A DNA stretch of 37,836 nucleotides from a virus. Location of the stretch: UHGV virus genome UHGV-0166071. One strand, 5' to 3'. The notes beneath the pieces were generated by a model. It had not been told where the DNA came from and did no database searches. It was given only the letters and a program-made list of their open reading frames with translations. Shown here one piece after another: positions 32,831-34,291 of the stretch. A program made the position numbers and the translations under genes. Numbering within the stretch: position 1 is the stretch's first letter; every line of letters starts with the position of its first letter.

Positions 32831-33295
32831 TTGAATAAGAAAGCCATTTTTATTGCAATAATTTTACTTGTTCCGATGTCGGGATTAGCCGCTCCTGGGA
32901 AGTATGAAAAAATGGCTGTTGATTTAATGGATCAGCAAAAGTTTACGCAGTGGCAACATTACGCCTCTGCTACTCCTTTTTTCGCTATGAATGGTCGCAG
33001 ATTCGCCATGACCATTGATGATTTCGCGGATATAGTCAGCAACTCCTTTCAAGAATGCGAAGATCTGGATTCCTACACCAATCGGAAAGGAACTACGGAT
33101 GATTGTAAGTCCTATGTTTACAAAGGCATAAAGGAGTGGGTAAACCTCTCTCAAGATAAGTCTGTTAGCGATACAGCATGGAAAATGGGCCAGCGCTATG
33201 CCTTCAACACACGTAATCCTATTGCCCATAAAAACGCATGGGATTTCAATGGGATGGCGGCCGGTATTCGCGTTGCTAAATCTCAAGGTTATTAA
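32831..33295 (+). CDS. predicted secreted protein with N-terminal signal peptide (about 154 aa, TTG start)
   Basis: Signal-peptide-like (M)NKKAIFIAIILLVPMSGLAAP directly after the hub stop; AT-rich; two Cys in the mature part; the track start at 32750 overlaps the hub gene and lacks the signal peptide context. Confidence 0.5.
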   Translation: MNKKAIFIAIILLVPMSGLAAPGKYEKMAVDLMDQQKFTQWQHYASATPFFAMNGRRFAMTIDDFADIVSNSFQECEDLDSYTNRKGTTDDCKSYVYKGIKEWVNLSQDKSVSDTAWKMGQRYAFNTRNPIAHKNAWDFNGMAAGIRVAKSQGY

Positions 33296-33364
33296 GTCAT
33301 GGATGCGCCGAAAATCATCGGATCTTTCCCTTGTAAAAAAGTGGCTGGGCGATGATTTTTGACG

Positions 33365-33380
33365 TCCATAATATTATGGA
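33365..33380. promoter_or_regulatory. 16-bp perfect palindrome TCCATAATATTATGGA
   Basis: Exact self-complementary 16-mer in the AT-rich spacer upstream of the cassette genes; a candidate regulator binding site. Confidence 0.45.
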
Positions 33381-33457
33381 TGAACTGTTGCCAATTGCGC
33401 TAATTTTAACAAAATAATACTGGTTAACGCATTTTTTGAACCATCTGTACACAGTAG

Positions 33458-33486
33458 TTGTCTATACTTTACCTTAAAGGTAAACT
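33458..33486 (+). promoter_or_regulatory. candidate promoter (TTGTCT-17nt-TAAACT) overlapped by palindrome TTTACCTTaAAGGTAAA
   Basis: Hexamers at 33458-33463 and 33481-33486; 17-bp palindrome at 33468-33484 spans the spacer and -10; GGGAGGGG Shine-Dalgarno follows at 33511. Confidence 0.4.
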
Positions 33487-33520
33487 CTGCGCTCCACTGA
33501 TGTTCACTATGGGAGGGGAT

Positions 33521-33760
33521 ATGAGGAAAATCGTTAATCGTTACTTAGCCGCTGCCGGTAGTGTTATGGACATTATGCCGACTACAGATTACTGGCAATA
33601 TGCTGCTTCTGGATCTGATTGTCGGGCAATAAGAAGTGATGTTAAAGTCATTGCAAGTGACATGAACAGAGTTATCAGGTATGAGTTCAAAACCCCGCAA
33701 GCAGGCGGCCGTTCTCAAAAAGCATCAGGAAAACAAAGCGTCGCAAAAAACCGTTCCTGA
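33521..33760 (+). CDS. hypothetical small protein (79 aa)
   Basis: ATG 33521 preceded by strong SD GGGAGGGG; MRKIVNRYLAAAGSVMDIMPTTDYWQYAASGSDCRAIRSD..; 3' end overlaps the next ORF by 80 nt in another frame. Confidence 0.4.
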   Translation: MRKIVNRYLAAAGSVMDIMPTTDYWQYAASGSDCRAIRSDVKVIASDMNRVIRYEFKTPQAGGRSQKASGKQSVAKNRS

Positions 33761-34253
33761 TTCGGATGGTATCGACGAAGATATTGATTCCTCGGAATAT
33801 GATGAGTCTCAGGAAGTAGTGGAAAAGCTGTCTGCAGTTGCCAACCTTGATCCTGAGCTAAAATCGAAGTTAACACCTGAACTTCTTGAGAGAGTTTCTA
33901 AGAACCCGAAGGTTATTGCCATGTTTCAGCAGGAGTCTTTTCAGGGACCACTCCCACCTCCTGCTATGCTCTTACAATATAATCAAATATTACCCGGCGG
34001 CGCTGAGAGAATTTTCAGGCTAACCGAAAAAGAGCAAGAGCATAGGCATAAGACGCAAAGTGATGCATTACTTGGTGCGGTTTCACGCGACAAACGTGGG
34101 CAATGGATGGGATTTTGCATTGCAATGGTAGTGCTTATAATGGCTGCGTTTTTTGCTAATCGCGGTAACACTTGGTTCGCAGGTACTCTTGCTACTTTAG
34201 ATCTCGTAGGATTAACTACAGTGTTTGTTTATGGTAGGAAGAAACCTAAATAA
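33681..34253 (+). CDS. hypothetical membrane protein (190 aa) with acidic N-terminal region and C-terminal hydrophobic hairpin
   Basis: C-terminal segments WMGFCIAMVVLIMAAFFA and TLATLDLVGLTTVFVYG; N-terminal D/E/K-rich region; possibly DUF2335-like (from memory); weak RBS, start uncertain. Confidence 0.5.
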   Translation: MSSKPRKQAAVLKKHQENKASQKTVPDSDGIDEDIDSSEYDESQEVVEKLSAVANLDPELKSKLTPELLERVSKNPKVIAMFQQESFQGPLPPPAMLLQYNQILPGGAERIFRLTEKEQEHRHKTQSDALLGAVSRDKRGQWMGFCIAMVVLIMAAFFANRGNTWFAGTLATLDLVGLTTVFVYGRKKPK

Positions 34254-34268
34254 TCCATACATCCTTTC

Positions 34269-34291
34269 AAACCCGCTTCGGCGGGTTTTTT
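34269..34291 (+). terminator. rho-independent terminator
   Basis: AAACCCGC-ttcg-GCGGGTTTTTTG immediately after the stop at 34253. Confidence 0.8.

Follow-up and report, generated by a model that had tools for sequence, protein, structure and literature searches.

Closest Described Systems

The gp15 moron of phage HK97 is reportedly the subject of Juhala et al. 2000 and Cumby et al. 2012. It is an AT-rich insert in the late tail operon (36.6% GC vs 50–54%), and a terminator stands immediately ahead of the tail gene that follows. Two of the three open reading frames (ORFs) analyzed here, ORF B and ORF C, form a module (B/C) that is likewise low in GC, found at the same position and followed by a terminator, but in this case the terminator belongs to the backbone of the insertion site. 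HK97 gp15 is an inner-membrane exclusion protein expressed from the prophage (PMC3594210) and B/C shares this location, as predicted for ORF C. The two differ in that gp15 is a single protein of 62 aa while B/C is composed of two genes, one of them coding a soluble partner. BLASTP gave no match between them at E <= 100.

The rexA-rexB pair of phage lambda, which is expressed in the lysogen next to cI, combines a soluble sensor with a membrane effector. ORFs B and C similarly code for a soluble protein and a small integral membrane protein. In a prophage of Proteus, the B–C pair is also found just after cI but, differently from rexA-rexB, it is separated from cI by a terminator. RexB has four membrane helices whereas ORF C has two and a cytoplasmic domain, and no Pfam match to the Rex families was found.

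Llp of phage T5 and Sp of phage T4 are exclusion proteins that locate to the envelope and whose genes adjoin tail genes. This is also the case of the Cor proteins of phages phi80, N15 and HK022 (PMC3594210). The third ORF of the region, ORF A, and the other alleles found at its position also code for exported proteins, as predicted here, and lie among genes of the tail tip. Llp and Cor are lipoproteins whereas ORF A has no lipobox, and there is no sequence or fold similarity between ORF A and Llp, Cor or Sp.

Hotspots of temperate phages and satellites, e.g., those of P2/P4, were reviewed (PMC11364771). They have fixed flanks and interchangeable cargo that is often toxin-antitoxin-like. The same features characterize the interval between the baseplate hub and spike genes, named here the hub–spike bay, which differs from P2/P4-type hotspots by its hub–spike site, by its two slots and by a built-in conserved terminator. 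No description of this hotspot was found in the literature.

Organization of the Hub–Spike Junction

The window is the complete 37,836-nucleotide stretch of the virus genome UHGV-0166071. The host element is a prophage of the lambdoid kind, whose contractile tail is of SEN34/Brunovirus type. The early region of the window is lambdoid, and a Q antiterminator is encoded at positions 13775-14398 (PF03589, E 2e-57). The region at positions 32831-34291 consists, with near certainty, of two accessory modules that are exchanged independently of each other at a recombination hotspot, the baseplate hub–spike junction of an E. coli prophage. The left anchor of the bay is the 3' end of the baseplate hub gene (31764..32828, + strand; phrog_196 ‘baseplate hub’, E 4.5e-89; PF22759), which is kept across all relatives examined. 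The right anchor is the baseplate spike gene (34311..35063, + strand), identified by PF18352 (E 1.4e-44) and by an Apex motif. The PGAP label of the spike gene is ‘membrane-puncturing spike protein’. The architecture between the two anchors can be assigned with hardly any doubt: slot 1 comes after the hub gene and is separated from slot 2 by a conserved 3' fragment of the usual slot-1 gene, and slot 2 is followed by a conserved terminator and by the spike gene, preceded by its Shine-Dalgarno sequence. Slot 2 carries interchangeable cargo, which is here the two-gene moron made of ORF B and ORF C. The kind of element is thus ordinary, namely a moron or hotspot cargo, while its content is uncharacterised. 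The full explanation, in which this architecture is taken together with the functions proposed below, has a probability of about 0.55.

A preliminary description of this DNA reported about 1.5 kb of AT-rich sequence coding three ORFs. The composition bears this out (42–45% GC vs 52–56% in the flanks). Windows of 400 nt over positions 32801-34400 have 42.2–45.0% GC and the tail genes on either side 51.7–56.3%. When calculated by gene, GC is 42.4% for ORF A and 42.7% for the B/C module, compared to 54.3% for the hub and 50.9% for the spike genes. The GC content at third codon positions (GC3) is 0.43, 0.36 and 0.39 for ORFs A, B and C, respectively, vs 0.60 for the hub gene. The three ORFs are genuine, since conserved homologues exist for each of them.

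Exchange of Cargo at the Bay

A sample of 5,426 complete E. coli genomes was used, of which 319 matched the junction query, with both flanks present in most of the sampled rows. At least nine cargo arrangements are found at the hub–spike junction of the complete E. coli genomes matching this query. ORF A is present in 9 of the 5,426 genomes, B/C in 16, and the two are found jointly in a single one. The comparison of presence and absence at the exact junction, which had been put forward as a check, shows that B/C is polymorphic and that other cargo occupies the site. Related genomes carry different cargo at the same site, which supports the earlier view that the region is accessory and not core DNA. 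Instead of being core tail genes present in every relative, as would be the case if that view were wrong, A and B/C are minority alleles. The ORFs are very probably accessory and non-structural. Their location inside the baseplate cluster, as well as ORF B being left unannotated by PGAP, could be taken to mean that they are core tail-assembly genes, or else no real genes. This is hardly credible for rare alleles that have conserved homologues in all three cases, one coding a predicted secreted protein (A) and another a predicted membrane protein (C) that appears to be under purifying selection.

The two slots are exchanged separately. In PSS-04 ORF A is accompanied by a different slot-2 cargo, composed of a 190-aa protein and a YafO-family toxin, and in Citrobacter ORF A is the sole gene of the bay. 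Conversely, B/C of BEN2908 and L107 lies beside an ordinary slot-1 gene (116 and 114 aa, respectively), and elsewhere B/C travels without ORF A. The proposal that the region is a self-contained three-ORF cassette does not hold in view of this separate assortment of A and B/C, of the gene scar found between A and B, and of a terminator that is part of the bay backbone. An integrated accessory system of three components, to which the contiguity and similar AT-richness of the ORFs might point, is very improbable considering the independent assortment of A and B/C, found together in a single genome of 5,426, the scar between them and the existence of B/C without A elsewhere. Other cargo of the bay includes a YafO-family toxin pair, proteins with a weak HEPN-like or a weak PycTM-like match, and several unknowns. 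Most bay cargo has no known defence assignment. If the explanation is true, a common prophage type of E. coli, Klebsiella and Salmonella has a two-slot exchange platform within its baseplate operon, and this platform could be a source of new exclusion or defence genes.

ORF A and the First Slot

ORF A (32831..33295, + strand) codes for a secreted protein of 154 aa and occupies slot 1. It has a TTG start codon preceded by the Shine-Dalgarno sequence GGGGA and begins 2 nt past the hub stop codon, which leaves no room for its own promoter. Its translation is coupled to that of the hub gene. An alternative GTG start at position 32819 would yield a protein of 158 aa. The hydrophobic amino terminus (KD19 2.14, residues 3-24) ending in ...SGLA/AP agrees with the signal-peptide protein of about 154 aa that was initially reported. 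The predicted signal peptide is of Sec type and the protein has two invariant cysteines, C76 and C92.

Homologues of ORF A form 14 clusters, exclusively from Enterobacterales, and all those whose locus was examined are encoded directly after the hub gene. ORF A is 57–71% identical to homologues whose hub is 77–88% identical, which suggests that slot-1 products evolve fast. Searches of Pfam, NCBIfam and PADLOC assigned no family to ORF A, and its AF2 model (pLDDT 82) gave no fold match. The comparison to BFVD yielded one unnamed viral protein (E 1.7e-3) that is probably a distant homologue. Remote homologues were found as 26 matches in 1.84 billion representatives; they all have a signal peptide or a lipobox and provided no functional clue. 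One of the remote homologues is fused to Sel1/TPR repeats. PDB profile searches with ORF A and with the common 113-aa family of slot 1 gave weak matches only, taken as chance. The possibility that this 113-aa family is a MliC/PliC-like lysozyme inhibitor, an idea based on its cysteine pattern and size, received no support from sequence searches.

ORF A is followed by a 57-nt remnant of another gene (33299..33355, + strand) lying between A and B. It corresponds to the last 18 codons (MDAPKIIGSFPCKKVAGR) and the stop codon of a slot-1 gene, and is identical to the 3' end of the 116-aa gene of BEN2908. This identity indicates that ORF A is an allelic replacement of the usual gene coding a secreted protein of ~113 aa that is present in nearly every relative. 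The ORF A family is the rarer of the two and the ~113-aa family is common. The remnant serves as the anchor for recombination between the two slots. Comparable remnants with other breakpoints follow the ORF A homologues of Klebsiella, of another E. coli and of Hafnia phage yong1. One of these remnants is frameshifted.

Slot 1 is filled in every relative examined, always by a gene coding a secreted protein. Its alleles, which include the 113-aa family, the 154-aa family and a 241-aa lipoprotein, are unrelated in sequence, and a signal peptide or a lipobox is present in each of their products. An occupied slot 1 is also found in phages that were isolated as virions (Mulock, yong1, YP3 and SEN34). 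In the role proposed here, ORF A would be made together with the late tail proteins and exported to the periplasm, where its target would be the envelope or the tips of incoming tails. The underlying logic would be that of Llp, Cor and Sp, in which the exclusion factor is linked to those tail genes that code for the product it acts against. The constant occupancy of slot 1, virion isolates included, the coupling of its gene to the hub without an own promoter and the SLT domain carried by the tape-measure proteins of relatives are also consistent with a function in the phage lytic cycle and not in the lysogen. Slot-1 proteins could, e.g., prevent progeny phages from adsorbing again to lysing cells and debris or from injecting into them. 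Another option is that they modulate peptidoglycan cutting by the tape-measure protein or the tail tip. This is rather doubtful, as unrelated alleles that evolve faster than their neighbours look more like accessory genes in an arms race than like a fixed step of the cycle, and sequence searches showed no link to lysozyme-inhibitor families. If the exclusion role of ORF A is true, the slot-1 secreted proteins could show how contractile-tailed phages block their own kind in the periplasm.

ORF B and ORF C

ORF B (33521..33760, + strand) codes for a soluble basic protein of 79 aa that matches phrog_26284 (E 2e-12). Its Shine-Dalgarno sequence GGGAGGGG at positions 33511-33518 is in agreement with the ribosome binding site already reported for this 79-aa protein. 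PGAP leaves the gene unannotated in KSC64 and in BEN2908. ORF B is intact in L107, with 76% amino-acid identity. The 4 synonymous and 10 nonsynonymous substitutions separating the two sequences are, alone, no proof of selection on the B protein. The family of ORF B (~70 aa) comprises 261 clusters; it has no Pfam entry or name and is absent from NCBIfam, and annotations often omit its genes. The ORF B sequence itself gave no match in Pfam, NCBIfam or PADLOC and has no recognisable DNA-binding fold. The best match in a PDB profile search was weak (E 0.019) and taken as chance.

ORF C (33681..34253, + strand) codes for a DUF2335 protein of 190 aa (PF10097, E 1.9e-18; phrog_3996, E 1.1e-46). The PF10097 match covers residues 92-141 with 66.5 bits, above the gathering cut-off of 25, and the conserved core reads GPLPPP...ERIF...HRH...RDKRGQ. 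PHROG 3996 is labelled ‘membrane protein, moron’. The preliminary description held that none of the three proteins belongs to a nameable family, which stands for A but not for C, a DUF2335 member, nor for B with its match to phrog_26284. Hydropathy and charge confirm that the 190-aa protein has an acidic amino terminus (pI 4.7, residues 1-57) and a carboxyl-terminal hydrophobic hairpin. The amino terminus is disordered and the hairpin spans residues 142-187 as two membrane helices. The AF2 model (pLDDT 74) features a long helix at residues 107-160 and a second one at 164-187. Both ends of the protein are predicted to be cytoplasmic. The periplasmic loop has only ~5 residues, which argues against a direct contact with an incoming tail. 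Codons that belong to ORF C only show 58 synonymous and 26 nonsynonymous changes relative to L107, with the full amino terminus retained. This pattern points to purifying selection on ORF C. Neither Foldseek nor profile searches of the PDB found matches for ORF C. No literature on the function of DUF2335 was found, the mentions of PF10097/COG5346 coming from an unrelated data-mining paper. Papers on T6SS/T4SS mention a “DUF2335 phospholipase/Tle1”, which is not this family and looks like a slip. DUF2235 was probably meant.

Pairing and Distribution of the B–C Genes

ORFs B and C share 80 nt, with C read in the +1 frame with respect to B. A B-like ORF is found immediately upstream of the DUF2335 gene in 68 of 80 loci from many phyla, as well as in RAH1, EC.W1-9 and BUCT711, and a reciprocal check of the pairing was positive in 3 of 3 cases. 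Gaps from B to C are mostly of -40 to +9 nt, within a full range of -130 to +201 nt. A single frameshifted gene is not a valid alternative to the pair considering the +1 frame, the separate conservation of both ORFs and the variable overlap or spacing of the two. The surroundings of B–C revealed no third conserved gene.

The B–C pair is an autonomous unit found in many bacterial phyla and at classic moron sites of temperate phages. In Citrobacter it adjoins gtrABC at the end of a prophage, in Uetakevirus phages it lies beside the tailspike gene, and in RAH1 it is inside the tail cluster. The 125 neighbours of B–C carry 117 different Pfam families. Outside phages most pairs sit among housekeeping genes and not in defence islands, and no defence-island enrichment was found around B–C. 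Such housekeeping surroundings are as compatible with a selfish or physiological module as with one for defence.

Possible Roles of the B–C Module

ORFs A, B and C have no match in PADLOC-DB 2.0.0 (2023) at E <= 1. B/C has the anatomy of a moron: its GC content is low, its candidate promoter is conserved and it is followed by a terminator. From this anatomy and the position of the genes, a function in envelope-level phage exclusion or in abortive infection may tentatively be proposed, at odds short of even. ORF C would be anchored in the inner membrane, most of it facing the cytoplasm, and ORF B would bind or control it. The pair would shield the lysogen from other phages by membrane-level abortive infection, with C acting as a Rex-like, partner-controlled effector with two helices. 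Alternatively, DNA entry could be blocked, as with HK97 gp15, SieA and Imm.

A different role, as a toxin-antitoxin-like addiction module, would also suit an autonomous two-gene unit whose small gene comes first, whose genes overlap or abut, and which is scattered over unrelated neighbourhoods in many phyla, a layout shared with type II toxin-antitoxin systems. ORF C would then be a membrane-damaging toxin and ORF B its antidote and autorepressor; the module would be selfish and stabilise the prophage or the bay, with no dedicated anti-phage role. A palindrome overlapping the candidate promoter, which is itself more conserved than the coding DNA, and the YafO-family toxin pair found among other slot-2 cargo point in the same direction. 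This role is nevertheless unlikely, as no DNA-binding fold can be recognised in B and the toxin-antitoxin models of Pfam, NCBIfam and PADLOC match neither of the two proteins, C matching DUF2335 only. Moreover, many toxin-antitoxin modules are also abortive-infection systems, so that the two explanations overlap.

The exclusion or abortive-infection role of B–C could be part of a wider picture. ORF B–DUF2335 might be an unrecognised two-gene conflict system of many phyla, in which a partner-controlled membrane effector acts in abortive infection or exclusion and is carried by phages as a moron, and the hub–spike bay might be a platform for entry exclusion factors that coevolve with the tail tip. 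This extension is speculative and somewhat unlikely. If true, DUF2335 gains an obligate partner gene, mostly missed by annotation pipelines, and a testable role. If the functional proposal is wrong, the region simply holds another set of uncharacterised prophage morons. Tail-assembly-inhibition (Tai) systems were considered as well, and nothing links them to A, B or C. They are mainly found upstream of the packaging module (PMC11364771).

Promoter, Palindromes and Terminator

A candidate sigma-70 promoter of B/C was read from the sequence at positions 33458..33486 (+ strand). It is composed of TTGTCT (33458-63), a 17-nt spacer and TAAACT (33481-86), and agrees with the consensus at 8 of 12 positions, below the scan threshold. 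The generic promoter scan found 4 promoter-like sites vs 4.2 expected in shuffled sequence, i.e., no excess. The palindrome TTTACCTT-A-AAGGTAAA at positions 33468-33484 overlaps the spacer and the -10 element of the candidate promoter. The stretch 33425-33520 is ~95% identical to L107, while the DNA coding only C is 79.5% identical, so that by this comparison the candidate promoter appears more conserved than the coding DNA. The own promoter overlapped by palindromes that had been attributed to the complete region can thus be retained as a candidate sequence (8/12) with its palindrome for B/C, but not for ORF A, which has no room for one. A second, perfect palindrome of 16 bp, TCCATAATATTATGGA, is found in the junction DNA (33365..33380). 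It is absent from the diverged B/C allele of L107 and is therefore not an essential part of the B/C module.

In the lysogen, B/C would be transcribed from its own promoter, the overlapping palindrome suggesting repression or autoregulation, and the transcript would halt at the backbone terminator. During lytic growth the Q-antiterminated RNA polymerase would pass this terminator.

The right border of the bay is an intrinsic terminator (34269..34294, + strand) with the sequence AAACCCGC-TTCG-GCGGGTTT followed by a T run. Its hairpin (34269-34288) has 8 pairs and precedes T6. The region had been said to end in a clean intrinsic terminator of its own cassette; the terminator downstream of C is indeed strong, but it is supplied by the bay backbone. 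Of 17 relatives, 16 have this terminator just ahead of the Shine-Dalgarno sequence of the spike gene regardless of the cargo they carry, which identifies it as a backbone element and not as part of the cassette. The search of Rfam gave a single sub-threshold rsmX match over the terminator (27 bits vs a cut-off of 56), taken as chance. The free energy of the hairpin is -12.8 kcal/mol (z = -3.26 vs shuffles), and the alignment of the terminator has 96% of its cells paired and shows 2 compensatory changes.

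Gene order and base composition around the hub-spike junction

The window is a lambdoid prophage with genes for O, DnaB, NinG, a holin, an endolysin and the Q antiterminator (13775-14398). Its contractile tail is of the type of Salmonella phage SEN34 (Brunovirus). The baseplate genes follow the order Dit-like, plug, hub (31764-32828), the AT-rich stretch under study (32831-34291), spike (34311-35063), gp25-like, baseplate J and DUF2612. The AT-richness in the preliminary description is borne out, GC being 42-45% at 32801-34400 versus 52-56% around it, and the GC3 of the three ORFs is 0.36-0.43 versus 0.60 for the hub. 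ORF A (32831-33295, 154 aa), ORF B (33521-33760, 79 aa) with its strong Shine-Dalgarno sequence, ORF C (33681-34253, 190 aa) and the terminator were all confirmed. The preliminary interpretation is right in part: the stretch is real and accessory, but its reading as one self-contained three-ORF cassette did not hold. ORF A DNA is found in 9 and DNA of the ORF B-ORF C pair (B/C) in 16 complete E. coli genomes, and the two occur together in KSC64 only. B/C accompanies a 116/114-aa first gene in BEN2908 and in L107, a locus with a diverged B/C allele, while ORF A is found without B/C in PSS-04, beside YafO-family cargo, and in Citrobacter, where it is alone. They assort independently and the presumed cassette is thus composed of two modules of separate histories.

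A two-slot cargo bay

A 2.1-kb query spanning the junction has matches in 319 of 5,426 complete E. coli genomes, KSC64 being the sole one matched full length. Most other rows sampled have both flanks with different DNA between them and some have one flank only. The cargo between hub and spike codes for proteins of 116 aa and DUF2335 (BEN2908), ORF A, 190 aa and a YafO-family toxin (PSS-04), 110, 256 and 131 aa (E41), 111 and 170 aa (WP3-W18-ESBL-08), a 241-aa lipoprotein (85.0412), 115, 184 and 56 aa (MINF_1D), 113 and 266 aa (phage YP3), 77 and 138 aa (SEN34), 112 and 148 aa (Mulock), or 111, 257 and 126 aa (PK8241). The presence/absence comparison suggested earlier for this exact junction therefore finds different cargo in relatives. 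This junction constitutes a cargo bay with two slots: slot 1 is the first gene place after the hub, here ORF A, and slot 2 holds further cargo, here B/C.

Slot-2 cargo in related E. coli prophages (L003-L008, L106) includes a 190-aa protein with a YafO-family toxin (PF13957, E 4e-17), a 256-aa protein with a 131-aa protein weakly matching HEPN_IX, a 184-aa membrane protein weakly matching PycTM, a DUF4282 protein and several proteins without assignment. The bay looks like a reservoir for toxin-antitoxin or defence-like genes. No complete genome other than KSC64 (L001, NZ_CP018840 3481916-3490016) is identical to the window throughout the bay. The KSC64 prophage is a deletion derivative in which a truncated head-morphogenesis gene abuts the plug gene. 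In the window, unlike in KSC64, the plug is preceded by the genes for the tape-measure and Dit-like proteins (28863-31761), so the window comes from another, intact copy.

The terminator hairpin, its T run and the spike Shine-Dalgarno sequence are kept in 16/17 relatives, with 96% of cells paired and two compensatory changes. Since they are kept whatever the cargo, the terminator belongs to the bay and is supplied to B/C by its slot. Cargo transcripts made in the lysogen would stop there while late transcription would read through, the usual moron logic being applicable because the phage codes for Q.

Replacement of the slot-1 gene by ORF A

The commonest first gene after the hub codes for a conserved ~113-aa protein with a signal peptide, two Cys and the carboxyl end ...LLQNSMDAPKIIGSFPCKKV. 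In the window its place is taken by ORF A. Its last 18 codons persist directly 3' of the ORF A stop (33299-33355), identical to the BEN2908 allele. This scar shows that ORF A replaced another allele of the slot-1 gene, whose conserved 3' end is a crossover anchor. Comparable scars with differing breakpoints follow ORF A homologues in Klebsiella (one copy frameshifted), another E. coli (28 codons kept) and Hafnia phage yong1. The Citrobacter prophage, where the homologue is the sole bay gene, has no scar. An imperfect 15-nt inverted repeat (CGCCGAAAATCATCG / CGATGATTTTTGACG, 29 nt apart, 33306-33364) lies across scar and junction; it is AT-rich and dissimilar to terminators.

Proteins of the ~113-aa family (L002, L004-L006, L008, L009, L105, L106) share the conserved motif DGNNYGFE...FLNVQLL...FPCKK and have Cys close to either end, with no match in Pfam or, by sequence, in PDB. 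Its size and Cys pattern are, we presume, reminiscent of MliC/PliC-type periplasmic inhibitors. Note that the window tape-measure protein (28863-30872) has no more than a weak match to PhageMin_Tail. A lytic transglycosylase domain is annotated in the corresponding proteins of Klebsiella (L012, PF01464 SLT) and Hafnia phage yong1, which would matter should slot-1 products target a muralytic activity borne by the tail.

ORF A starts 2 nt past the hub stop, preceded by GGGGA as Shine-Dalgarno sequence, which leaves no room for a promoter. Its signal peptide is of textbook Sec type, and two of its Cys are invariant. The family is small (14 clusters, Enterobacterales only) and all homologues at the loci examined lie directly 3' of the hub. 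A HMMER scan of 1.84 billion representatives yielded 26 matches, each with a signal peptide or lipobox; in several the domain is carboxyl-terminal in a longer protein, one being fused to Sel1/TPR repeats. ORF A is 57-71% identical to homologues whose hub is 77-88% identical, thus evolving faster than its neighbours, while its GC stays at 40-45%. Pfam, NCBIfam, PADLOC and PDB gave nothing or one chance-level match. Since its predicted signal peptide makes ORF A a secreted protein, it is excluded from the virion. Most economically, ORF A would be read as an envelope-acting factor linked to tail-tip genes, for which Llp, Cor and Sp provide models. A serious rival reading has ORF A serve the lytic cycle of the phage itself, favoured by the finding that slot 1 is never empty in the relatives examined.

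The B-DUF2335 pair

ORF C is a clear DUF2335 protein (PF10097, phrog_3996). The AF2 model (pLDDT 74) and hydropathy predict an acidic disordered amino terminus, a helical cytoplasmic core with the invariant GPLPPP...ER...RGQ residues, and a long helix leading into membrane helix 1, followed by membrane helix 2. The ends are basic, from which both termini are predicted to lie in the cytoplasm, with an outside loop of ~5 residues. ORF B, left out of the PGAP annotation, matches phrog_26284. Klebsiella siphovirus RAH1 (where it is likewise unannotated) and two Uetakevirus phages have a homologue of ORF B immediately 5' of DUF2335. The earlier statement that no ORF belongs to a nameable family is thus only partly right, ORF A being the one without any family. 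In L107, carrying its allele in the same bay, ORF C is 82% identical (58 synonymous and 26 nonsynonymous changes), keeps its 190-aa form starting within ORF B, and ORF B is intact; sequence comparison indicates purifying selection on ORF C. The 95 nt preceding ORF B are ~95% identical to L107 versus 79.5% for C-only DNA, which supports the candidate TTGTCT-17-TAAACT and palindrome 33468-84 therein as a real promoter and operator. The other palindrome (33365-80) is missing from L107 and belongs to the junction DNA.

Scanning one genome per species by means of a DUF2335 alignment gave 80 loci from many phyla. A profile from only four phage B sequences gave weak matches, all just upstream of DUF2335 on the same strand. 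After iteration, a significant B-like ORF adjoined DUF2335 in 68/80 loci, with only 2 significant matches elsewhere in 584 kb. From the B side the family comprises at least 261 clusters (63-126 aa) with neither name nor Pfam domain, and DUF2335 is immediately downstream in 3/3 members checked. No third conserved gene was found among the surveyed loci, whose flanking genes are mutually unrelated (117 Pfam families for 125 neighbours). In temperate phages the pair occupies typical moron positions: just after cI (Proteus), at the prophage end beside gtrABC (Citrobacter), beside the tailspike (Uetakevirus) and within tail clusters. The two genes of B/C form a mobile, autonomous unit, coding for a small protein anchored in the membrane and its soluble partner. 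In Xenorhabdus (L101, L102) DUF2335 follows a cI/cro pair, with a NADAR gene downstream and no B-like gene among those called between cro and DUF2335; the context looks like a prophage remnant. In L110 (metagenome contig, one MAG) the pair has a DpnII/MboI-like restriction gene, a PIN gene and a gene for a Band_7 protein as neighbours, and in L109 (Scandinavium) it shares the early region of a prophage with HipA-like and YdaS/YdaT genes. These two neighbourhoods are isolated hints of a conflict system, neighbours elsewhere being mostly housekeeping genes.

Putative role and relation to known morons

B/C would be expressed in the lysogen from a putative operator-controlled promoter and may work at the inner membrane, where it could be an effector under the control of its partner, in abortive infection or in a toxin-antitoxin-like manner, or could block DNA entry. 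An anti-phage role is given a probability of about 0.35. None of the three ORFs matched defence or toxin-antitoxin models in Pfam, NCBIfam and PADLOC, and no literature on the DUF2335 family was found. A purely selfish toxin-antitoxin role is rather improbable, and the remaining probability goes to a service in other physiology. The closest precedent is the HK97 gp15 moron, alike in anatomy and operon type, whose product is an inner-membrane exclusion protein (PMC3594210) with no homology to ORFs A, B or C. Within the literature searched, the two-slot bay with built-in terminator, the ORF A family and the near-universal unannotated DUF2335 partner appear undescribed. The kind of element, a moron or the cargo of a hotspot, is itself well known. 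Other AT-rich stretches of the prophage, at 4001-5200, 6001-7200 and 16401-17600 (lowest GC among them 36.5%, at 17201-17600), could be other morons.
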